DNA from: Sulfuriferula sp.
GTDB lineage: Bacteria > Pseudomonadota > Gammaproteobacteria > Burkholderiales > Sulfuriferulaceae
Assembly: GCA_013140765.1 (NCBI GenBank)
Contig: JABFSE010000016.1
Location: 320 to 64,319 of the forward strand
Reading direction: 5' to 3'
DNA length: 64,000 nucleotides
The notes below the pieces were generated by a model. It was not told where the DNA came from and searched no databases. It saw only the letters and a program-made list of their open reading frames with translations. The position numbers and the translations under genes are program-made. Below, in pieces: positions 19,901 to 30,393 of this stretch (its first letter is position 1; each line of letters starts with the position of its first letter).

Positions 19901-19905
19901 TTTTG

Positions 19906-19941
19906 TGTTGCCCTAGCTAATATCAGATTACTAGGGCGACA
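19906..19941. terminator. Hairpin between convergent icd and the CarH-like gene
   Basis: TGTTGCCCTAG...CTAGGGCGACA stem. Confidence 0.6.
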
Positions 19942-19946
19942 TCACC

Positions 19947-20825
19947 TCATTTATCTCTCCACGCTTCAAGCGTAATAGCCAACTCAGTAAACGCACGAAT
20001 AGCTTTAATGCCTACGGGTAACTTAGTACGCGGCACACCCTGCCCTCCTACCCAAATATGAACAGACTCTGGCAATAGGTTGCGTAACTCAGTTAAGCTC
20101 TGTAAGAGCTGATTTTTAGGATAAGCCGCACTACACGATAAACATAAAATATCTGCCTGATGCGCCCTTACCGCAGCGTTGATTTCAACAACAGGGGTTT
20201 GTGCGCCTAAATTCACACAGCTCACCTGATTCAGTGCCAACAATGCCTCGCACATCAACCCGCCTAATGTATGCTCTTCACCAGGCAACGTCGTCAACAA
20301 CACGCTAGGTGCAACTACTTCAAAACCCATCTGACTAATCGCCGATCTTAGCAACGATATAACTTGCTCAGAATAAGCATGCTCCTCAAAAATAGCCAAA
20401 CGACCACGCATCCAAGCATCACCTATCTGCGTATTCATATTAGCAAGACTTTCTGTCACGAAACGCGCCAAACCCTGTTCGATAAGTAAGTTATTAAGGT
20501 AACGATGCAGATCAGCAGTGTGATGCTTTTTCAAAATAGCGATAATTTCAGCATCATTTTCAATACTGACATCTTGGACATTTAGCATCAATGATAAAGC
20601 ACTCATATCCAACGCCATCAACTTACCAGGTCTATGTCCTTGATTCATTAGCCGCTGTACCAGACGTAGCTTCTCCAACTCCATTTGTGAATATAAACGC
20701 TCGCCATGCACATCACGTATGGGTGTTGGAAAGCCGTAGCGACGCTCCCACACGCGCAAAGTGTCCTTACCAACACCCGTATCACGCTCAACGGCGGCTA
20801 TATTAAAGTATGTGTTTTTTTCCAT
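19947..20825 (-). CDS. MerR-HTH plus cobalamin-binding regulator (CarH/LitR-type photoreceptor)
   Basis: LRVWERRYG HTH, W-x9-EH (WMRGRLAIFEEH), E-x-H-x2-G (EEHTLG), LSCS and VGG of the B12 Rossmann domain. Confidence 0.9.
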   Translation of the reverse strand: MEKNTYFNIAAVERDTGVGKDTLRVWERRYGFPTPIRDVHGERLYSQMELEKLRLVQRLMNQGHRPGKLMALDMSALSLMLNVQDVSIENDAEIIAILKKHHTADLHRYLNNLLIEQGLARFVTESLANMNTQIGDAWMRGRLAIFEEHAYSEQVISLLRSAISQMGFEVVAPSVLLTTLPGEEHTLGGLMCEALLALNQVSCVNLGAQTPVVEINAAVRAHQADILCLSCSAAYPKNQLLQSLTELRNLLPESVHIWVGGQGVPRTKLPVGIKAIRAFTELAITLEAWRDK

Positions 20826-20844
20826 TTTATAAAAATACTTTTAT

Positions 20845-20860
20845 TTTTGTCCTAGACAAA
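20845..20860. promoter_or_regulatory. Palindromic operator candidate, site 1
   Basis: TTTTGTCCTAGACAAA, identical to 28627-28642. Confidence 0.75.
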
Positions 20861-20862
20861 TG

Positions 20863-20891
20863 TTGACACCCGTTAATAATTAACCTATTTT
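20863..20891 (+). promoter_or_regulatory. Candidate sigma70 promoter for the gpx-led operon
   Basis: TTGACA (20863-68)-17 nt-TATTTT (20886-91). The -10 is weak. Confidence 0.5.
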
Positions 20892-20908
20892 TAACACATA
20901 CACATCAC

Positions 20909-20923
20909 TTTGACCAAGACAAA
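20909..20923. promoter_or_regulatory. Operator variant, site 2
   Basis: TTTGACCAAGACAAA, 13/15 match to the palindrome core, 2 nt before the gpx ATG. Confidence 0.55.
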
Positions 20924-20925
20924 TC

Positions 20926-21480
20926 ATGAATAGAACCCTAATTGTCGCAACACTCATCAGCGCACTCTACGCACTCCCCAGCATTGCCGCGCCCACTTGC
21001 CCAAAAATTCTCGATTACCGAGTGAATACATTGCAAGAACAAGCTATTGATTTATGTAGCTACGCTGGCAAAGTAGTCGTCGTGGTCAACACAGCCAGCT
21101 ATTGCGGCAATACCCACCAATATGCAGGCTTAGAAGCCTTATATCGCAAAGAAAAAGCGAACGGACTTGTTATTTTAGGATTTCCATCTAACGATTTTGG
21201 TGGGCAAGAGCCGGGCAGTAACAAAGAAATAGCCAAATTTTGCCGCCTGACTTATAGCGTAGCGTTTCCTATGTTTGAAAAATCAGGCGTAACCGCAAAT
21301 AACGCCAATCCGCTATTTAAGCAACTCATTACTATTACGGGACACGCGCCACGATGGAATTTCCACAAATACTTGATTAACCGCAATGGTAATACCGTAA
21401 TTTCATTTGAAAATACGGTTGAACCTAGCGATCCAGAATTTATTAAACAAATCCAAACGATGCTCGCGCAAAAACCATGA
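20926..21480 (+). CDS. Glutathione peroxidase-family protein with signal peptide
   Basis: VVNTASYCG, LGFPSNDFGGQEPG, WNFHKYLI. Confidence 0.93.
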   Translation: MNRTLIVATLISALYALPSIAAPTCPKILDYRVNTLQEQAIDLCSYAGKVVVVVNTASYCGNTHQYAGLEALYRKEKANGLVILGFPSNDFGGQEPGSNKEIAKFCRLTYSVAFPMFEKSGVTANNANPLFKQLITITGHAPRWNFHKYLINRNGNTVISFENTVEPSDPEFIKQIQTMLAQKP

Positions 21481-22739
21481 GATCGATTGCGGTCATAGGC
21501 TCAGGAATTTCAGGGTTATCTGCCGCTTGGCTATTAACGCAGAAATATCATGTGACACTGTATGAAGCAGAAAATCGCCTAGGCGGCCATAGCCATAGCG
21601 TTGATGTATGTTTAGAGGGCAAAACAGCCGCTGTCGATACAGGATTTCTAGTTTGCAACGATCGCACTTATCCTAACTTACTCAACCTATTTGCATTATT
21701 AGGCGTTCCGCTCACCGCCAGTGACATGTCGTTTAGTGTGCAAGTAAGAGACGATAGATTAGCATGGGCTGGCACATCAATCGCCACCTTGTTTGCTGAC
21801 AAACGAAATTTATTACGTCCTGCTTTTTGGCGCATGATTAACGACATTTTGCGTTTCAACCGTCATGCAAGAGCCATCTTAAACCACCCGAATAACGCCG
21901 ACAGCCTAGCCGATTTCCTACACAAAAATCATTATAGCTCAGCGTTTAGCAACTGGTATTTGCTACCCATGGCAGCGGCTATTTGGTCGTGCCCAACACA
22001 ACAAATGCTTAGTTTTCCTGCACTTTCGTTCATTCATTTTTTAGAACAACATGGCTTACTACAAATAACTAATCGTCCACAATGGCTAACTGTCACAGGT
22101 GGCTCACGTCACTATGTACAACGCATTGCCGACACTATTACACATATTTATTTGTCTGAACCTGTACAGCAAATTGAGCGCACGGATAAGGGTGTCAAAA
22201 TCACTAGCCCAATGGGGGTTCGTAATTATGACGAAGTCGTCTTAGCAACACATAGCAACCAAAGTATGGCGATGCTCTGCGACATCAGCGCAGCAGAGTC
22301 ACGCATCCTAAGCGCGATTAAATATCAGCCTAATCATGCAGTCTTGCACACCGACAGCACTATCCTCCCTGCGCAAAAAATGTGGTCAGCATGGAATTTC
22401 CATACTGCTAACGCGTCTCCTGGTGCAACCCCAGTGAGCGTCACCTACTTAATTAACCAACTACAACCACTACCTTTTGACACCCCTGTGATGGTAACGC
22501 TCAACCCTGACACACCGATTGCCGCTGACAAAATCATCCGTAGTTTTGATTATAGCCATCCTATATTTGACCAACATGCTATCGCCGCACAACATCAACT
22601 TGCGCAAATCCAAGGACAACGACACACTTGGTTTTGTGGCGCATGGACAGGTTACGGCTTTCATGAAGACGGCTTAAAATCAGGTATGGCGGTTGCGCAA
22701 GGCTTAGGTGTGTCTATTCCTTGGTTAACGCAACTATGA
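21477..22739 (+). CDS. FAD-dependent amine-oxidase-like oxidoreductase (UfaD-like fatty acid desaturase family)
   Basis: IGSGISGL, EAENRLGGHS, VDTGFLVCNDRTYPNL, WFCGAWTGYGFHEDGLKSG. Confidence 0.85.
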   Translation: MRSIAVIGSGISGLSAAWLLTQKYHVTLYEAENRLGGHSHSVDVCLEGKTAAVDTGFLVCNDRTYPNLLNLFALLGVPLTASDMSFSVQVRDDRLAWAGTSIATLFADKRNLLRPAFWRMINDILRFNRHARAILNHPNNADSLADFLHKNHYSSAFSNWYLLPMAAAIWSCPTQQMLSFPALSFIHFLEQHGLLQITNRPQWLTVTGGSRHYVQRIADTITHIYLSEPVQQIERTDKGVKITSPMGVRNYDEVVLATHSNQSMAMLCDISAAESRILSAIKYQPNHAVLHTDSTILPAQKMWSAWNFHTANASPGATPVSVTYLINQLQPLPFDTPVMVTLNPDTPIAADKIIRSFDYSHPIFDQHAIAAQHQLAQIQGQRHTWFCGAWTGYGFHEDGLKSGMAVAQGLGVSIPWLTQL

Positions 22740-23494
22740 AACCAGAAATCTGCATCGGTCATATCATGCACCGCAGGCATTTACCTGTGGTGCATCAATT
22801 CACTTATCCAACTTATTTTTTGCGCTTCGCTATTGATGATATTAGCCAACTAAAAAACCGCTGGCTATCAATAGATAGTTGGAATTTATTCAGCTTTTAT
22901 CACCGCGATCATGGTGCACGTGATGGTAGCAACCTTGCTATTTGGATACGTCAATTACTCAATGAAAATCACATCCAAAAAGCGAACGGCAAGATTATTC
23001 TACATACCTACCCTCGCATTTTAGGCTATGTATTCAATCCCGTTAGCTTTTGGTTTTGTCATGATACCGAGGGTAATGTGCGTGCAATTTTATGCGAAGT
23101 GAACAACACTTTTAACGAACATCATAGCTACTTGTTAGCGCATGAAGATGAACGTCCGATTGCTGAAAGCGACTGGTTGGCGTGCCGCAAACAATTTCAC
23201 GTATCACCCTTTTTTGCAGTTGATGGTAGCTATCAGTTTCGCTTTCGCTGGACAGGCAATCATTGTCAATTCCAAATCGATCATCACCAACACAGCAATA
23301 AACTCTTAAGCACCACGCTCTCAGGCAACAAGCAGGTATTGACAGCAAAAATACTGATGAAATTATTTTTTACACACGCCTGGATGACATTTGCCGTCAT
23401 TGCCCGCATACATTTACAAGCCTGGCAGATATGGCGCAAAGGGGTGAAATTTCATACCAAACCCACCCCACCAGATAAGGAAATAAGCCGATGA
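22736..23494 (+). CDS. DUF1365 family protein (UfaO-like)
   Basis: GHIMHRR...HQFTY, PRILGYVFNPVSFWFC, EVNNTF, KQFHVSPF, IHLQAWQIWRKG. ATG overlaps the upstream stop. Confidence 0.88.
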   Translation: MKPEICIGHIMHRRHLPVVHQFTYPTYFLRFAIDDISQLKNRWLSIDSWNLFSFYHRDHGARDGSNLAIWIRQLLNENHIQKANGKIILHTYPRILGYVFNPVSFWFCHDTEGNVRAILCEVNNTFNEHHSYLLAHEDERPIAESDWLACRKQFHVSPFFAVDGSYQFRFRWTGNHCQFQIDHHQHSNKLLSTTLSGNKQVLTAKILMKLFFTHAWMTFAVIARIHLQAWQIWRKGVKFHTKPTPPDKEISR

Positions 23495-24714
23495 GCTGCC
23501 CCACAGTGAGCAACACACCTGTAGCATTAAACACACTACCTCGACCTGCACGCATCTTCATAAAACTCTTAGCAGGTATTAAAACAGGGCATCTGACGTT
23601 ACATATGCCAGATGGCAAGCATATTGCATTTGGTGATACTCAAGATCCGCTGCACGCCAATCTGCATCTCAATGACTGGGGCGTGTGCCAAGACATACTT
23701 ACCAGTAGCGATATTGGCTTGGGCGAAAGCTACATTGCTGGACGCTGGTTTAGCAACGACATCCCCGCACTCATTAGCATTGCCATTTACAATAGGAATA
23801 GCTTGGCGCGCGTCATGCGCGGGAATTTATTGAGCCTATTGATTTACCAAATCAAACACAAACTACGCGCCAACACCAAAACGGGAAGTCGTAAAAACAT
23901 ACTCGCGCACTACGATGTAGGTAATGATTTTTATCGACTGTGGCTGGATCGCAGCATGACCTATTCATCCGCCTTATTTGCAGGCGACCGCAAACTTAGC
24001 TTAATTGACGCACAACAAGCAAAATATCAACGAATACTGACACAACTCGATTGCAAACCGTTTCAGTCAGTTCTGGAAATTGGTTGTGGCTGGGGTGGTT
24101 TTGCCGAAATAGCCGCAAATAACCATATTGTTGTGCATGGTGTCACGCTCTCACCCAGTCAACTAGCCTACGCCCAAAGCCGCACGGCACATTACCACGA
24201 GGCGGTTCGTCCCAAACTTAGTTTAACGGATTACCGTGATATACACGGGCAGTTTGATCATATTGTCTCCATAGAAATGTTTGAAGCCGTGGGGGAGCGT
24301 TATTGGTCAGATTACTTTAAGGCCATCAAACGCTTACTCCGACCTCAAGGTAGCGCAGTCGTGCAAACGATTACCATAGCAGATACGCTTTTTAGTCGCT
24401 ATCGACGTAGCACCGACTTTATTCAACAATATGTTTTCCCTGGCGGAATGCTTCCCTCCCTGTCTGTTTTCAAAACCAAGGCCGCTCAGGCTGGACTAAA
24501 AGTCATTGACGCCTATTCATTTGGACTCGACTACGCCGAAACGCTTAAACGCTGGCGAATCGAGTTCCATCAAACCTGGGAACAAGCGCAACGCCAAGGA
24601 TTTGATCAACGTTTTTATCGGCTATGGGATTTTTATCTAGCCTACTGCGAAGCGGGTTTTACGGCGGGTGCAACTAGCGTTTACCAAATAAAACTTATTC
24701 ATGCCGAAAAATAA
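23491..24714 (+). CDS. cfa: Cyclopropane-fatty-acyl-phospholipid synthase family SAM methyltransferase (UfaM-like)
   Basis: NILAHYDVGNDFY, MTYSSA, LEIGCGWGG, SIEMFEAVG, FIQQYVFPGG, WDFYLAYCEAGF. Confidence 0.88.
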   Translation: MSCPTVSNTPVALNTLPRPARIFIKLLAGIKTGHLTLHMPDGKHIAFGDTQDPLHANLHLNDWGVCQDILTSSDIGLGESYIAGRWFSNDIPALISIAIYNRNSLARVMRGNLLSLLIYQIKHKLRANTKTGSRKNILAHYDVGNDFYRLWLDRSMTYSSALFAGDRKLSLIDAQQAKYQRILTQLDCKPFQSVLEIGCGWGGFAEIAANNHIVVHGVTLSPSQLAYAQSRTAHYHEAVRPKLSLTDYRDIHGQFDHIVSIEMFEAVGERYWSDYFKAIKRLLRPQGSAVVQTITIADTLFSRYRRSTDFIQQYVFPGGMLPSLSVFKTKAAQAGLKVIDAYSFGLDYAETLKRWRIEFHQTWEQAQRQGFDQRFYRLWDFYLAYCEAGFTAGATSVYQIKLIHAEK

Positions 24715-24716
24715 TC

Positions 24717-25265
24717 ATGCCGAAAATCCTCCATTACGCCAACAACCTATTGATGATTGGTATTATTATGTTGCTACCTAGCTGCTCTAACACACCAGTC
24801 TCCGCATATCAAAATGAAACGCCCACCTTAGACTTGGCGCAATACTTTAATGGCAAAGTAGATGCTTGGGGCATGTTTCAAGACCGTTCCGGCAAAGTAA
24901 TCAAGCGTTTCCATGTTGTCATTGATGCGCACTGGCAAGGTAATGTGGGCACATTGGACGAACACTTCACCTGGTCAGACAACACCACCAGCCAACGTAT
25001 TTGGACTATCACTAAACTAGATAAACACCACTACCAAGGCACAGCCGCCGATGTAGTCGGAAACGCGCAAGGCGAGGCTTACGGTAACGCACTCCAATGG
25101 CGATATGTGCTACAGCTGCCTGTCGATGATAAAATTTACAACGTAAGCATTGACGACTGGATGTATCAGCTAGATGATTTATCGCTCATGAATCGCTCCA
25201 AAATGAGCAAATTTGGCTTTCATCTGGGCGACATCACGCTCTACTTCAAGAAACGTCCATCATGA
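24717..25265 (+). CDS. DUF3833 family lipoprotein
   Basis: Lipobox-like LLPSC, LDLAQYFNGKVDAWGMFQDRSG, AYGNALQW, DDWMY, KFGF. Confidence 0.82.
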   Translation: MPKILHYANNLLMIGIIMLLPSCSNTPVSAYQNETPTLDLAQYFNGKVDAWGMFQDRSGKVIKRFHVVIDAHWQGNVGTLDEHFTWSDNTTSQRIWTITKLDKHHYQGTAADVVGNAQGEAYGNALQWRYVLQLPVDDKIYNVSIDDWMYQLDDLSLMNRSKMSKFGFHLGDITLYFKKRPS

Positions 25266-26014
25266 GTTTGAACGCAAAAATAACCGACTGGCATGGTAAA
25301 GTCATCTGGATAACGGGCGCATCCACAGGTATAGGTGCGGCATTGGCGCGACAATTATTAAACATAGGTGCTATCGTAATTACCAGCTCACGCACAGCAA
25401 TAACGTTAACTCACGCGAATACTTACCACGTCACCTGCGACACAACTGAACTTGCCAGCCTCGCTCTCGCCACGCAAAAAATAAAATCTCAATTTGGTAC
25501 ACTTGATTTAATTATCGCCAATGCAGGCAATCATGCACCTATGCGTGCAGACGCCATTGATGCTAAATTAGCAGCCCAACTCGTTGACACTAATCTAACA
25601 GGAACAATCAACACCGTAGCCTGCGGATTAACACTATTAAAACCGACAGGCGGTATTGCTATCGTCGCCAGCGTCGCGGGCTATCGCGGACTACCGACAG
25701 GCTTAATTTACGGCGCAACCAAAGCCGCCTTAATTAACTTCACTGAAACGCTGTATTTAGATTTAGCCCCTAAAGGGCATCAAGTCTATTTAATTAACCC
25801 TGGCTTTGTCAAAACGCCGCTCACCGACAAAAATCCCTTTACCATGCCCGCACTGATTAGCCCAGACGAAGCAGCAAAAGCGATTATATTGGGAATGACG
25901 AAAGGTCAGTTTGAAATTCATTTTCCAAAACGCTTTACATGGTTTATGCAAGCACTACGCCATCTACCCTATAGTTGGTATTTCTGGTTAATTCACAAAG
26001 GAACAGGATTATGA
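25262..26014 (+). CDS. Short-chain dehydrogenase/reductase
   Basis: TGASTGIG, NAG, YGATK (YxxxK), PGFVKT. Confidence 0.9.
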   Translation: MSLNAKITDWHGKVIWITGASTGIGAALARQLLNIGAIVITSSRTAITLTHANTYHVTCDTTELASLALATQKIKSQFGTLDLIIANAGNHAPMRADAIDAKLAAQLVDTNLTGTINTVACGLTLLKPTGGIAIVASVAGYRGLPTGLIYGATKAALINFTETLYLDLAPKGHQVYLINPGFVKTPLTDKNPFTMPALISPDEAAKAIILGMTKGQFEIHFPKRFTWFMQALRHLPYSWYFWLIHKGTGL

Positions 26015-26439
26015 ATACCGAAACAATAAACAACTTGATTCATTACTATGAAAACCTTACCCCAGCCGAGGTAGAGAACATGGGCACTTATTACAGCGAC
26101 CTAAGCTATTTCCGCGACCCGTTTAATGAAGTGCACACACTCGCCGCCATACAAGCCATTTTTCGCAAAATGTATCAACAAGTTGACCAGCCCACATTCC
26201 ACATTCAGGATAAATACATGAGCGAACAGGCACTGATATTAACGTGGGACTTTTCTTTTAACTTAAAAATCCCAAGTCGCCCGAATAAACATATACACGG
26301 CTTGAGTCTATTGCGATTTGACGAATCAGGCAAAATAAACTATCACCGTGATTACTGGGATGCAGCCCAAGAACTCTATGAGCAACTACCTGGTATAGGC
26401 GGCATTTTCAGTCTAATGCGTAAAATCATCGCGCATTAA
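26011..26439 (+). CDS. NTF2/SnoaL-like protein
   Basis: YSDLSYFRDPFNEV...HRDYWD. ATG 26011 overlaps the SDR stop; AGGA RBS. Confidence 0.82.
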   Translation: MNTETINNLIHYYENLTPAEVENMGTYYSDLSYFRDPFNEVHTLAAIQAIFRKMYQQVDQPTFHIQDKYMSEQALILTWDFSFNLKIPSRPNKHIHGLSLLRFDESGKINYHRDYWDAAQELYEQLPGIGGIFSLMRKIIAH

Positions 26440-26454
26440 ACTGAGAACCGATAT

Positions 26455-26922
26455 TTAAGTTGCCTTAAACCAACTCAACAATGATTTTTGTGGCTTGTCA
26501 ACTGTAGCGGCATGTTGGATAACTTGCGCAATCTCTTGCACAAAAGCCTCAGCTTGGCTGGGTGTATAGTCATACGGCTGAAATAAACCCATTTCACTGT
26601 ACTTCGACACCAGTTCATTATTTACACCGCTAAACTTCACCTGCTCCATCGACCACGCGGGAAAAGCCCGTGCTGTTATTTCATTATAAGATGCCATCAT
26701 GCAACGACTATGGCGCTTATCCGCGAGTATCCGTAGGTAAGTTTTATTAACGGCTTTGCGTTCGCCTTCTAGGCATTGGAAAAAATGTCGATCCGAATAA
26801 ATCAACACCCCCGTTACATGTTGCGCATGATTATTAACTTTTGACGTTGCCAAAATTTGGAAAATATCGTCGTCACTTAAATCTAAATTGCTGTAACTCA
26901 CATAACTTAATCTCACTAACAT
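26455..26922 (-). CDS. Stand-alone BLUF blue-light photoreceptor
   Basis: RLSYVS (Tyr), NN, VTGVLIY, FFQCLEG (Gln), DKRH, FPAWSM (Trp/Met). ATG 26922 after AAGGA. Confidence 0.92.
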   Translation of the reverse strand: MLVRLSYVSYSNLDLSDDDIFQILATSKVNNHAQHVTGVLIYSDRHFFQCLEGERKAVNKTYLRILADKRHSRCMMASYNEITARAFPAWSMEQVKFSGVNNELVSKYSEMGLFQPYDYTPSQAEAFVQEIAQVIQHAATVDKPQKSLLSWFKAT

Positions 26923-26941
26923 TTCATTTCCTTTACAAACA

Positions 26942-28471
26942 TTACAAAAAACCAATCTTTTCACGCAGCGTTTGCGCACCATCGGTAATACGTTGTTTTT
27001 CTACCTCCGTCATTTTTTTAATGTGTTGGTAAACCATGCCTACTCGTGGGTTATGCGCAAGTAGCGTGCTATGTCTGATATGGAAATCCCAATATAACGC
27101 ATTGTATGGGCACGCCTTATCACCATGCCGTTGTGCTTTATCATAATGACAGCGACCGCAATAATCACTCATACGATGGATATACGCCGCACTCGATATA
27201 TAGGGTTTAGTCGCCAATAAGCCACCATCGGCGAACTGACTCATACCCAATGTATTTGGCAACTCTACCCATTCAAACGCATCTACATACACACCCAAAT
27301 ACCATTGATGTACTGCGACGGGTGATAAGCCACTCAATAGCGCAAAATTACCAATGACCATGAGCCGCTGTATATGGTGTGCATGGGCGTTCTGCAAACT
27401 GTCAGTCAAGGCATGATGCAGGCAAGCCATCTTCGTTTTGCCATCCCAAAACCAAGCAGGCAAATCAGCATGATGCTGAAAAAAATTGTGTTCGACATAC
27501 TGTGGCATTTTTGCCCAGTAAACACCACGCACATACTCACGCCATCCCAAAATTTGTCGAATATAGCCTTCCGCACTCGCAATACTCACCACACCTGCGC
27601 TATAGGCTAGGGCTACGCGCTCAACAACTTCTTGGGGCGTAATCATTTTTACATTAAGCGCAAAAGACAGTAACGAATGAAACAAACGTGCATGATTTTG
27701 GCTCATCGCATCCTGAAAATCTCCAAAATACGGCAAGCTATATTTAGTAAAATTATCTAACTGCACCAAGGCTTCTGCACGATTAACAGGCCAACGAAAA
27801 GCCGTCGCCTGCGGCTCACCAAACGAGCGCACCCCCGCGACAGTAATGGTGTGCCATAAAGCATCGTGATTGTGTATTGGTCGTCTGTCTAATGGCTCAA
27901 CTGGCGAGCCTGACCAGGCTTTTCGATTCGCCTTGTCATGGCTCCACATACCACCTATAGGCTTGTTTTCCTCGTCAAGCAACACACCATGAATACGCCG
28001 CATATGTTGATAAAAATCCGCCATCAACCATTTTTTGCGTTGCTTAAAAAACTGACCAACTTCATCACGCTGCGTATAAAAATGTGCGCTATCAACTTGC
28101 ACTACCTCACAACCAATTTGCTCACCTGCCCGCGCCATTTGTTCATCTAGCCGCCACTCGTCAGGTGATTGGTAGAGCAACAATTGCGCATCATGCGCTT
28201 GCACTAACATAGCTAAATTGCTGATTAGATTTTGCTGATTACGCACATCGTCAATTGCTAAATAATCAACCTCATGACCAGCCATGCGCAACTGATGAGC
28301 AAAATCACGCATCGCTGCAAAAATAGCAATAATTTTTTGCGCATGATGCAAAACATAATCCGTCTCTTGGCGCATCTCCATCATGACATATCTAATTGAC
28401 GGCGATTTCTCGTTAAACCAAGGATGTAGCGGATACAGCTGATCTCCCAGAATTAAGCGCAGTGTCGTCAT
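26942..28471 (-). CDS. Fe-S bacterial cryptochrome / (6-4) photolyase family (PhrB/CryB type)
   Basis: [32 protein letters not shown] and four Cys (MAC, YCGRC, ACP) fitting a 4Fe-4S cluster. Confidence 0.9.
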
Positions 28472-28614
28472 ATTGTTTGGCGAGGCTTAGCATGGCGGCA
28501 GCGTGTTGAACAGTACTTCACCTCGTCCCACGCGCGCGCCCACTTTTTACGCCAGGTAAAAGGCAATCCGCAACTAAGGCAGGTTTTTGTTGGTAGCGGT
28601 CGTGATTTTGTCAT
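28468..28614 (-). CDS. DUF2256 family small Cys-rich protein, 48 aa (absent from ORF track)
   Basis: Manual translation [48 protein letters not shown]. Its stop overlaps the photolyase ATG. Confidence 0.9.
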
Positions 28615-28626
28615 TTAACCATGCAA

Positions 28627-28643
28627 TTTTGTCCTAGACAAAA
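28627..28643. promoter_or_regulatory. Palindromic operator candidate, site 3
   Basis: TTTTGTC-CTA-GACAAAA, with 16 bp identical to site 1. Confidence 0.78.
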
Positions 28644-28663
28644 AACTATATCACTTACATAAT
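28635..28663 (+). promoter_or_regulatory. sigma70 promoter for SDR-DUF3429
   Basis: TAGACA (inside the operator)-17 nt-CATAAT. Confidence 0.6.
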
Positions 28664-28673
28664 CAGTTCTCAA
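28645..28673 (-). promoter_or_regulatory. sigma70 promoter for DUF2256-photolyase-BLUF
   Basis: Minus strand TTGAGA-17 nt-TATAGT. The predicted start site falls inside the operator. Confidence 0.65.
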
Positions 28674-28695
28674 TCTTTATTTATGGACATCAAAC

Positions 28696-29436
28696 ATGCC
28701 AAAAATTGCGTTAGTTACAGGGGCAACAGGCGGATTAGGTCAAGCTATCGCACACCAACTAAATGACGAAGATTGGTTGCTAGTGGTCACAAGCCGAGAT
28801 CAAGAAAAATTAACACAAACGTATGGCACCCAACACCTGCAAATTGTCGCAGACTGCTCAACCTATCAAGGTGCGCGCGATATTTTTGAAGCCACACGAG
28901 CCGCAGGACTCACACCCACCGCATTAGCACATTGCGTCGGCAACGTCAGACTGGGCGCGTTACATAGAATGTCAGAAAAGGACTTTAATGAATGCCTCAG
29001 CGCAAATCTAATCAGCGCGTTTCACACACTGGCGGCGTTTATCGGGCAATTACGCGAAGCCGATACACCAGGTTCGGCGGTATTAGTTTCATCCGCCGCT
29101 GCCCGCATCGGCACACCCAATCATGAAGCAGTTTCAGCCGCAAAAGCAGGCTTAGAAGGGCTGGTGCGTGGCAGTGCGGCAACGGCTGCGACCGCTGGCA
29201 TCCGTGTCAATGCAGTCGCACCTGGCATCATGGATAGCCCCGCCGCAAACAAGGTGCTGGCAAGTGCCAATGCGCGAATTGCCGCAGCCAACCAATATCC
29301 ACTCCCAGGCATAGGCAATACTAAAGAAGTGGCCGATTTGATGTGCTGGCTATTATCAGAAAACGCTGCCCGCGTCACAGGACAAACGTGGGCGATTGAT
29401 GCAGGTTTTTCAGTTATCAGACCACTTGTGAGGTAA
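28696..29436 (+). CDS. Atypical SDR-family oxidoreductase
   Basis: TGATGGLG, VSSAAA, PNHEAVSAAK (no catalytic Tyr), RVNAVAPG, VTGQ. Confidence 0.85.
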   Translation: MPKIALVTGATGGLGQAIAHQLNDEDWLLVVTSRDQEKLTQTYGTQHLQIVADCSTYQGARDIFEATRAAGLTPTALAHCVGNVRLGALHRMSEKDFNECLSANLISAFHTLAAFIGQLREADTPGSAVLVSSAAARIGTPNHEAVSAAKAGLEGLVRGSAATAATAGIRVNAVAPGIMDSPAANKVLASANARIAAANQYPLPGIGNTKEVADLMCWLLSENAARVTGQTWAIDAGFSVIRPLVR

Positions 29437-29441
29437 ACGCA

Positions 29442-29888
29442 ATGAGCGCACAAAATACAGCACCCACAGCCGTCAAATGGCTCAGTTATGGCGGGCTTAT
29501 TCCATTCATCGTACTAGCAACTGCGATAACGCTAAGTCATTATCATCATGCTATATTGGGTTATGCTTTAATGACTTATAGCGTCAGCATTTTGAGTTTT
29601 GTCGGTGCGTTACATTGGGGGTTTGCGATGAATACGCACACGCTTACGCCACTACAACGGAATTTATTATATACATGGAGCACAATACCTGCACTAATTG
29701 CCTGGCTTGCCACATTGTTACCGTTACACCTAGGGTTGATTTTATTACTGAGCACATTTCCAGTGCAATTCTGGCAAGACAAACTACTGAATGCGCATAT
29801 AGCACTCCCTGACTGGTACTTACACTTACGCCTGAGACTAACACTGATTGCCAGTTTGGCTCTATTTATTGCTACGCTAAAACTGTAA
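29442..29888 (+). CDS. DUF3429 family membrane protein
   Basis: LSYGGLIPF, YSVSILSFVGALHWG, PDWYLHLRLRLT. Confidence 0.8.
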   Translation: MSAQNTAPTAVKWLSYGGLIPFIVLATAITLSHYHHAILGYALMTYSVSILSFVGALHWGFAMNTHTLTPLQRNLLYTWSTIPALIAWLATLLPLHLGLILLLSTFPVQFWQDKLLNAHIALPDWYLHLRLRLTLIASLALFIATLKL

Positions 29889-29896
29889 ATATCAAT

Positions 29897-29928
29897 AAAA
29901 AAGGGTGCGAATAAATCGCACCCTTTTT
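29897..29928. terminator. Bidirectional intrinsic terminator
   Basis: AAAAAAGGGTGCGA-ATAAA-TCGCACCCTTTTT between convergent genes. Confidence 0.9.
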
Positions 29929-29944
29929 CAATTCAAGCGACTAA

Positions 29945-30148
29945 TTAAGAAGCTTGGATGTTTGAAGCTTGTTTGCCTTTAGGACCTTGCGATACTTCAA
30001 AGCTAACTTTTTGACCTTCTTTAAGTGTTTTGAAACCACCCATGTTGATTGCAGAGAAGTGTGCAAACAAATCTTCGCTACCATCATCAGGAGTAATAAA
30101 GCCAAAACCTTTAGAATCGTTGAACCATTTAACTGTGCCAGTTGCCAT
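29945..30148 (-). CDS. Cold-shock domain protein (CspA/CspD family)
   Basis: [18 protein letters not shown]...LFAHFSAI (RNP1/RNP2). Divergent from clpS. Confidence 0.96.
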
Positions 30149-30393
30149 TGCTACATTCCTTGATAAAAAATACGCCAAAAACGGCTAATGGATTATTTGA
30201 GAACCAAGATTGCACAACGGCAATACCAGACTTGCTTAAACCTTGATACCAAACTCCAGCACACTTTTTACGCTAGATAATCTTACTTGGCAAGCATTTT
30301 ATATTTTTTTTACTATTTTTTAATCTATGCTTGAATAATTCACACAAAAGCTCAAAATAAAGCCTTAGTAAATTTATCGTGTAATCGCACCAG

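Follow-up and report, generated by a model that had tools for sequence, protein, structure and literature searches.

What a light-sensing repressor, a flavin photoreceptor and a DNA photolyase are doing side by side in a bacterium that is not a phototroph is the question raised by a stretch of DNA from Sulfuriferula sp. (Burkholderiales, Sulfuriferulaceae). The window, by which we mean the whole 64,000-nucleotide stretch analysed (contig JABFSE010000016.1 of assembly GCA_013140765.1, positions 320 to 64,319), holds a block of about 10 kb, at about 19,904–29,886, that had been singled out from the sequence alone as a candidate light-defence regulon bounded by hairpins (the original prediction). 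Searches against Pfam and the Protein Data Bank (PDB) recovered every gene named in it, at the positions given. We conclude, with a probability of roughly 0.7, that the block is a self-contained, horizontally acquired photoprotection island under one repressor of the class I LitR/CarH type. The identity of the repressor, a palindrome shared by the control regions and the empty insertion sites of related genomes carry this reading and are considered first.

A class I LitR/CarH repressor

The only regulator encoded in the block lies at its left end:

19947–20825, minus strand: litR/carH, 292 aa, MerR-family class I (adenosylcobalamin-type) photoreceptor repressor, with Pfam MerR_1 and B12-binding domains

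Residues 8–64 match Pfam MerR_1 (E=9e-12) and align with the DNA-binding domains of CarH and CarA, and residues 5–264 match the Thermus CarH structures (PDB 5c8d/3whp, E=3e-27). The W138-x9-E148-H149 motif is intact and aligns to the Thermus segment AWHRGEIGVAEEH. The cobalamin motif reads E183-E-H185-T-L-G188, x41, S-C-S, x27, G-G, with SxS where the consensus has SxV/T (ExHx2Gx41SxV/Tx22-27GG, with His as the lower ligand). Against the NCBIfam CarH equivalog the protein scores 122 bits, far under the 400-bit cut-off. By its signature motifs the regulator is a class I adenosylcobalamin (AdoCbl) LitR/CarH protein, and a cluster elsewhere in the genome, comprising a TonB receptor, CobO-BtuR (corrinoid adenosyltransferase) and CobB, can supply the cofactor. 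As far as sequence reaches, the motifs, the alignment to CarH and the conserved palindrome described below support the earlier proposal that the set is wired to a cobalamin sensor.

Two control regions and one palindrome

Two divergent control regions, litR–gpx and DUF2256–SDR, hold the predicted operators and a predicted promoter:

20845–20860: operator palindrome A, TTTTGTCCTAGACAAA, which abuts the rightward -35 and stands 20 nt before the litR ATG; an exact copy of C; predicted
20863–20891, plus strand: predicted sigma70 promoter of the gpx-lipid operon, with -35 TTGACA at 20863–68, a 17-nt spacer and -10 TATTTT at 20886–91, from a promoter scan
20908–20923: operator palindrome B, CTTTGACCAAGACAAA, 63 bp from A and ending 2 nt before the gpx ATG; predicted, weaker
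28627–28642: operator palindrome C, TTTTGTCCTAGACAAA, the one site in the 81 bp that separate the divergent DUF2256 and SDR (short-chain dehydrogenase/reductase) genes; predicted

The 2.18-Mb genome has two exact copies of TTTTGTCCTAGACAAA and no more, one per divergent control region, and the core has no further occurrence in the genome at up to 1 mismatch. A genome scan with the 15-mer core gave three matches at 2 mismatches, one of which is palindrome B; at up to 3 mismatches it gave nothing convincing outside the block as a further member of the regulon. Within the window there are 4 matches at up to 3 mismatches, a number reached in none of 100 shuffles of the window. The original prediction had the two divergent units sharing one palindrome; the exact 16-bp copy is indeed present in both control regions, but the left region holds two palindromes. 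Palindrome C, by comparison, has no partner site at 63 bp on either side.

Promoter assignments throughout are consensus matches. In the right-hand region, the promoter scan gave a candidate rightward -35 within palindrome C (TAGACA-17-CATAAT) and a candidate leftward -10 (TTGAGA-17-TATAGT) that has the palindrome just downstream of it. In the left-hand region, the 63-bp spacing would place both palindromes on one face of the helix, flanking the promoter, which fits bridging by a dimer of dimers. The tandem 11-bp repeat recognised by Thermus CarH (nAnnTnnACAn) was considered as an alternative operator: by eye there is one full match, AATGTTGACAC, beside site A, and none was seen at the second control region. 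It was rejected because the palindrome, not the 11-bp repeat, is the conserved element.

The paired palindrome in relatives and metagenomes

Upstream of litR orthologues (40–62% identity), the palindrome core is found in about 10 of 15 genomes of the order. Of 17 litR loci drawn from the genus itself and from further families of the order, 10–11 carry a second palindrome 63 or 64 bp from the main one, Gallionellaceae included. When metagenome contigs were scanned with the dual-palindrome pattern, at least 120 stretches were found, and 80 of them were examined for gene content: a litR orthologue stands right beside the pair in 64, a UfaD-like gene occurs in 42 and gpx in 27. Because the pair recurs in the loci of relatives and in metagenomes, the 63-bp spacing is not an accident. 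A scan of the genome collection by LitR alone returned only two high-GC Burkholderiales loci, both without the palindrome.

Forty-five unique metagenome loci, oriented by litR, give a consensus layout in which palindrome A stands within a few bases of the litR start codon, TTGACA begins 3 nt past A and is followed by a 17-nt spacer and TAnttTA, then by palindrome B, and the first downstream gene starts 0–3 nt after B.

It might be argued that the palindrome is the site of another, unlinked regulator, or that the units are regulated independently and the shared 16-mer stems from common descent or promoter recombination; A and C, identical at 16/16 positions, could have arisen by a recent duplication. 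The palindrome, however, tracks litR and not another gene, across families as well as in 64 of the 80 metagenome loci; the remainder of the genome lacks it, and the block encodes no rival regulator; and in another genome of the collection (G030) the palindrome recurs at satellite promoters unlinked to litR. We hold this explanation to be highly unlikely.

A second alternative accepts LitR as the regulator of the block but denies that it senses light: it would report B12 availability, or act independently of B12 like Myxococcus CarA, and the block would answer mainly to oxidative stress. CarA keeps the B12 motif and yet does not need B12 (PMC8156234), and a peroxidase together with lipid modification would also be useful against non-photic oxidants. 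CarA, on the other hand, lacks the Wx9EH motif, whereas the present LitR and all 40 metagenome LitRs that cover the B12 domain keep both B12 motifs intact, Wx9EH and the His ligand motif alike; moreover, outputs such as a light-driven photolyase and a BLUF protein make sense only in light. This possibility is, in our estimation, very unlikely.

Two side observations concern the palindrome. In a 2.4-kb metagenome contig (L162, Ga0123355_10266885, 262–2277) the dual-palindrome pattern occurs four times, without a litR match; this may be a tandem repeat that has nothing to do with LitR. Two Gallionellaceae loci (L060 at 5511, L062 at 5508) conserve a further palindrome, TTGTCCAAGACAA, some 400 bp into the coding sequence of litR; it may be an internal operator, or may be kept merely through conservation of the coding sequence.

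A precise insertion between icd and cspD

In all 24 of the other genomes of the genus with contigs spanning the site, icd is followed directly by cspD-clpS-clpA. Judged by alignment with these empty sites, the block as a whole was inserted precisely between icd and cspD, with its left junction just past the icd stop codon and its right junction at CAATAAAAAAGGG. Both hairpins that had been claimed as boundaries were located where expected, and their fold energies were computed:

19905–19942: left boundary hairpin, between the 3' ends of icd and litR; -20.4 kcal/mol, z = -5.9; without a U-tract
29898–29928: right boundary hairpin; -19.6 and -22.9 kcal/mol on the two strands, z about -9 and -8

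The left hairpin was brought by the island: the empty sites of relatives lack it and have a different hairpin in its place, so that, on this comparison, the island has replaced icd's own hairpin with another. The right hairpin is the resident bidirectional terminator of cspD, and its sequence is identical in three genomes without the island (G009, G021 and G024). An Rfam match to the cspA thermoregulator (90.7 bits, window 29895–30277, minus strand) spans the cold-shock gene beside the island together with its leader, and the island's insertion point lies just past the terminator of that gene.

The close relative G021 carries a litR-lipid cluster at a different chromosomal place, and the proteins of that cluster are only 61–80% identical to those of the island, as against 93–97% for icd, ClpS and ClpA. 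The photolyase described below (FeS-BCP) is found in no other genome of the genus. The G+C content is about 0.44–0.46 within the island and 0.48–0.50 outside. Together, the empty sites, the divergence of the G021 cluster, the restriction of FeS-BCP, within the genus, to this genome and the shift in G+C point to a complete module gained by horizontal acquisition or relocation. Neither an integrase nor a target duplication was seen at the island, and a tblastn search of the genome turned up no paralogue for any of the island's genes. In another genome of the genus (contig G003:C141; L037 / L015) the litR orthologue has an in-frame TAA, and the adjoining CMAS and DUF3833 matches are fragmentary; this litR-lipid cluster may be decaying, or the assembly may be poor.

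The peroxidase and lipid operon

Rightward from the paired palindromes runs an operon whose neighbouring genes overlap or sit a few bases apart:

20926–21480, plus strand: gpx, glutathione-peroxidase family (Pfam GSHPx, E=4.5e-33); the only copy in the genome by tblastn
21477–22739, plus strand: flavin adenine dinucleotide (FAD) amine-oxidase family, UfaD-like fatty-acyl desaturase (Pfam Amino_oxidase)
22721–23494, plus strand: DUF1365, UfaO-like, of the oxygen-dependent furan-ring-forming enzyme family (Pfam, E=1e-78)
23491–24714, plus strand: CMAS S-adenosylmethionine methyltransferase (cyclopropane/methyl fatty-acid synthase), UfaM-like (Pfam, E=2e-79); the only copy in the genome
24717–25265, plus strand: DUF3833 (Pfam), conserved tail of the lipid operon
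25262–26014, plus strand: SDR (Pfam), conserved tail of the lipid operon
25975–26439, plus strand: SnoaL-like (Pfam), conserved tail of the lipid operon

The CMAS, FAD amine-oxidase and DUF1365 families are adjacent and translationally coupled; the Ufa-like labels are assigned by Pfam family. In furan fatty acid synthesis, UfaO is a DUF1365 protein and the UfaD family also acts, and in R. palustris the same three genes, of UfaM, UfaD and UfaO types, are clustered (PMC7380195). Six genes of the block had been taken as lipid-modification genes; for only three of them (amine oxidase, DUF1365 and CMAS) does the family have a demonstrated role in lipids (PMC7380195). The core litR<>(gpx)-UfaD-DUF1365-CMAS-...-DUF3833-SDR-SnoaL is conserved across the order, and the metagenome loci keep the same gene order.

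At the far end of the operon, the SnoaL stop codon (26439) and the BLUF stop codon (26455) converge with 15 nt between them, and no foldable hairpin was found between the two ends. Transcription induced from both converging operons should collide or yield antisense RNA.

The photolyase, BLUF and SDR arms

Around palindrome C, a leftward operon headed by DUF2256 faces a rightward pair of genes:

26455–26922, minus strand: BLUF, short and PixD-like, 155 aa (Pfam, E=2e-29); start revised from 26982 to the ATG at 26922
26942–28471, minus strand: Fe-S bacterial cryptochrome/photolyase (FeS-BCP/CryPro), probably a (6-4) photolyase (Pfam DPRP)
28468–28614, minus strand: DUF2256, small and zinc-ribbon-like (Pfam, E=5e-21); heads the leftward operon, with a 4-nt overlap with the photolyase start
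28696–29436, plus strand: atypical SDR (Pfam adh_short_C2), catalytic Tyr replaced by Val
29442–29888, plus strand: DUF3429 (Pfam, E=2e-30)

The photolyase matches an FeS-BCP (6-4) photolyase structure (PDB 7ykn) at E=1.6e-140 and PhrB (4dja) at E=2e-120, and all four ligands of the [4Fe-4S] cluster, Cys350, Cys438, Cys441 and Cys454, are present, so that it is a probable (6-4) photolyase. DUF2256 is also paired with FeS-BCP in L034, L132 and L168, the last two being metagenome loci with the order litR-DUF2256-FeS-BCP; in G030 both genes lie inside the litR operon. G030 carries, in addition, a litR-unlinked copy of the operator directly before an operon of an SDR, a cryptochrome-like gene and DUF3429, of which the SDR is orthologous. 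In the SDR of the block, alignment to FabG-type structures places NHEAVSAAK where YxxxK is expected; Val thus replaces the catalytic Tyr, and the gene was rightly called atypical.

The BLUF start was moved to the ATG at 26922 because all homologues begin MLVRL and AGGA lies 6–7 nt upstream of this codon. The best PDB matches of the protein are TePixD and Slr1694; the photocycle Tyr, Gln, Trp and Met positions are kept, and the segments RLSYVS, FFQCLEG and AWSM align with the matching segments of TePixD. The gene starts 19 nt past the photolyase stop codon, a gap short enough for the two to be considered co-transcribed. This gap, a Shine-Dalgarno sequence of its own and its place in an operator-controlled operon support the earlier suggestion that BLUF is an output of the regulon.

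BLUF orthologues at 55–81% identity were traced to contigs in eight distinct contexts. One metagenome contig (L059, BLUF 81% identical) repeats the arrangement of the block: the photolyase is followed by BLUF, and the two face the ends of SnoaL and SDR. A Gallionellaceae litR operon under the same operator continues with lipocalin, a class III cyclase, a 101-aa protein, BLUF (in fifth place) and CIA30. Five other contexts (L063–L067) show peroxidase, CIA30, epimerase or photolyase neighbours and neither operator nor LitR. Since most of the traced contexts lack LitR and the operator, BLUF is, on this sample, a recurrent but minority member of the regulon.

Could BLUF also be an input? Excited by blue light, it would act as an anti-repressor by binding LitR or the DNA-binding domain of LitR. 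The outcome would be a two-chromophore switch, with positive feedback, in which the regulon stays on in blue light despite fresh AdoCbl-LitR. There is precedent for flavin photoreceptors that strip MerR-family repressors off DNA, namely E. coli BluF-BluR and the short LOV protein that acts with class II LitR in Pseudomonas (PMC9758184). The BLUF subfamily is linked to class I LitR in two gene layouts, its conserved C-terminal SLLSWFK tail is a candidate partner-binding site, and neither the cyclase nor the 101-aa protein found with BLUF in Gallionellaceae is present in this genome. Class I LitR, however, senses light on its own; a BLUF gene of any kind lies nearby in only 1 of the 80 dual-operator loci, as a weak 29% match; five of the eight orthologue contexts have no LitR or operator nearby; and for the Gallionellaceae BLUF the adjacent class III cyclase suggests itself more readily as a partner. 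We consider an input role for BLUF doubtful, and favour BLUF as an output of the LitR regulon.

The tail just mentioned, K-S-L-L-S-W-F-K (window 26455–26480), is conserved across the BLUF subfamily and could be a partner-docking or membrane-anchoring motif. In three loci on Gallionellaceae-type contigs (L060 5130–8999, L062 5025–9029 and L067 6053–9055) the BLUF orthologue follows a class III nucleotidyl cyclase and the conserved 101-aa protein, and in two of them (L060 and L062) the set lies in the litR operon. These loci look like a split photoactivated cyclase module, possibly controlled by both B12 and blue light. By tblastn, the Gallionellaceae cyclase, 101-aa protein, lipocalin and CIA30 have no homologue in the genome studied here.

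Host background

The nearest named relative by ClpS is Sulfuriferula thiophila (83% identity), and for this reason the host is probably a sulfur-oxidising chemolithotroph. No rhodopsin was found in the genome; repeated over the order, the search matched another genome and therefore works. No photosynthetic reaction centre (Photo_RC) was found in the genome either. Hidden phototrophy is ruled out by these two absences, and the description of the host as a non-phototroph holds.

ChrR (TIGR02451) has no match in the genome, while the control search matched in Caulobacter. Control by sigmaE-ChrR is thereby ruled out, and there is no alternative singlet-oxygen regulator of the ChrR type. The likeness of the block to sigmaE-ChrR regulons, which the original prediction had drawn, is apt as an analogy and goes no further.

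The only classical cyclobutane pyrimidine dimer (CPD) photolyase of the genome lies on another contig (C31, 12.3–15.9 kb; L057), downstream of a ferric-reductase-like (MsrQ-type) membrane protein; an OmpR-type response regulator and a FecR/LysM protein come after it. The photolyase gene has no LitR operator close by, the closest operator-like match being a 3-mismatch site about 6 kb off.

Proposed mechanism and points against it

We infer LitR's binding to DNA, the light response, the promoter positions and the lipid product from sequence and from the known mechanism of the family. In the dark, AdoCbl-loaded LitR oligomers would bind the palindrome TTGTC-N3-GACAA. At litR–gpx, the palindromes 63 bp, or six helical turns, apart would bracket the rightward promoter, A abutting the -35 and B lying in the leader, and both would also lie across the path of litR's own transcription. 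At DUF2256–SDR, the one palindrome would overlap the rightward -35 and the leftward start region. Light from ultraviolet to green would photolyse the Co-C bond and the LitR oligomer would disassemble, freeing four transcription units. The first would be litR itself. The second would comprise gpx, the UfaD/UfaO/UfaM-type pathway to furan or methylated fatty acids and three accessory genes, whose products may scavenge singlet oxygen and lipid peroxides in the membrane. The third, DUF2256, the Fe-S (6-4) photolyase and BLUF, would provide DNA photorepair and a flavin blue-light sensor acting via a partner. The fourth would be the atypical SDR and DUF3429.

Several observations weigh against this reading. 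The operator here is a palindrome, whereas CarH of Thermus and Bacillus binds 11-bp direct repeats in tandem (nAnnTnnACAn, PMC8156234); the CarH binding mode is therefore not simply transferable. In this genome, site B deviates from a perfect palindrome (TTGAC/GACAA), and the litR ATG lies 20 nt from A, as against adjacent to it in most loci. No convincing placement was found here for litR's own promoter: the sole match of the scan, AGGACA-18-TAAAAT, was discarded because it overlaps the litR start codon, and the metagenome consensus hints at a leftward litR promoter with its -35 near site B, which this genome fits poorly. Most relatives that have FeS-BCP show no exact operator near it, so that arm of the regulon is variable. 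Finally, in R. sphaeroides, deletion of RSP1089, a CMAS-like gene of the RSP1091-1087 operon, left the fatty-acid profile unchanged (PMC7380195), which makes the lipid product uncertain here.

A bolder form of the mechanism would have LitR bridge the two palindromes six turns apart, a mode not described for CarH, and BLUF act as a blue-light anti-repressor. The result would be a two-chromophore switch with colour discrimination and hysteresis, carried on a portable 10-kb cassette that moves between chemolithotrophs. We think this combination improbable.

Relation to known light-responsive systems

The regulator has the same MerR domain, Wx9EH four-helix bundle and B12 Rossmann domain with ExHxxG...SxS...GG as the CarH/class I LitR proteins of Thermus thermophilus, Bacillus megaterium, Myxococcus xanthus and Streptomyces. 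Those repressors are autoregulated and have operators that overlap sigma70 promoters; here the palindromes touch or overlap -35 boxes and leaders that are themselves predicted. The outputs differ: CarH systems control carotenoids, whereas here we find a furan-fatty-acid-type cluster, a peroxidase, an Fe-S photolyase and a BLUF protein. The operators differ as well, 3–4 tandem 11-bp direct repeats in the characterised CarH systems (PMC8156234) as against a 13–16-bp palindrome here, paired at 63 bp or single.

In gene content there is a strong overlap with the class II LitR regulons of Pseudomonas putida and P. mendocina (PplR/PmlR with a short LOV protein), which include photolyase, ufaM-type lipid genes, an FAD oxidoreductase, an SDR, a CryB-type Fe-S cryptochrome and hypothetical proteins; class II LitR represses the phrB, ufaM, cryB and SDR genes (PMC9758184). 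Footprinting in P. mendocina placed two repressor sites at each promoter, the first at the -35 and the second past the transcription start but before the ATG (PMC9758184), and the layout predicted here is similar. Class II LitR, however, lacks the B12 Rossmann domain and is switched by the separate LOV protein, whereas the present regulator carries the B12 motifs and the flavin sensor is a BLUF protein; the class II site, TGTACA-N12-TGTACA, is unlike the palindrome described above.

The sigmaE-ChrR regulons of Rhodobacter sphaeroides (RSP1091-1087, UfaM) and Vibrio cholerae draw on the same UfaD, UfaO, CMAS-type, photolyase and peroxidase families (PMC7380195, PMC5241685). There, an extracytoplasmic function (ECF) sigma/anti-sigma pair answers singlet oxygen; here there is no ChrR and the promoters look sigma70-type. 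As for the BLUF protein, its photocycle residues are kept as in E. coli BluF-BluR (YcgF-YcgE) and the PixD type, and the action of a BLUF protein on a MerR-family repressor has its precedent in the former. Unlike E. coli BluF, the present protein has no EAL domain and is encoded as an output of a B12-photoreceptor regulon.

The combination of genes had at first seemed new as a whole. The census of relatives and metagenome loci indicates that the LitR-lipid core is very common, and the analogous Pseudomonas class II LitR regulon has been characterised (PMC9758184). What is unusual is the second unit, in which DUF2256, an Fe-S (6-4) photolyase and a PixD-like BLUF face an atypical SDR and DUF3429 across one copy of the operator. 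Three features are specific to this window: an operator grammar of palindromes spaced 63 bp apart, an arm with BLUF and FeS-BCP placed under an identical copy of the operator, and the demonstrable insertion of the whole module. In our literature search we found nothing joining CarH, photolyase and cyclopropane, and no mention in a relevant context of the operator sequence or of the palindromic 63-bp-spaced grammar.

Significance

If the proposed reading is true, photoprotection can travel as a complete 10-kb module, sensor and response together, and settle in an intergenic site between housekeeping genes, and a compact cassette with its own regulator could serve as an expression module controlled by B12 and green light. 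The 63-bp palindrome pair, with at least 120 natural variants, would offer a defined grammar in which to test how a CarH tetramer reads DNA that is not a tandem repeat, and BLUF inside a B12 regulon would be a candidate link between two classes of photoreceptor. For the wider group, it would mean that AdoCbl photoreceptors of Betaproteobacteria-type lineages have the chemistry of membrane lipids and the photorepair of DNA under their control, where the textbook example has a carotenoid response.

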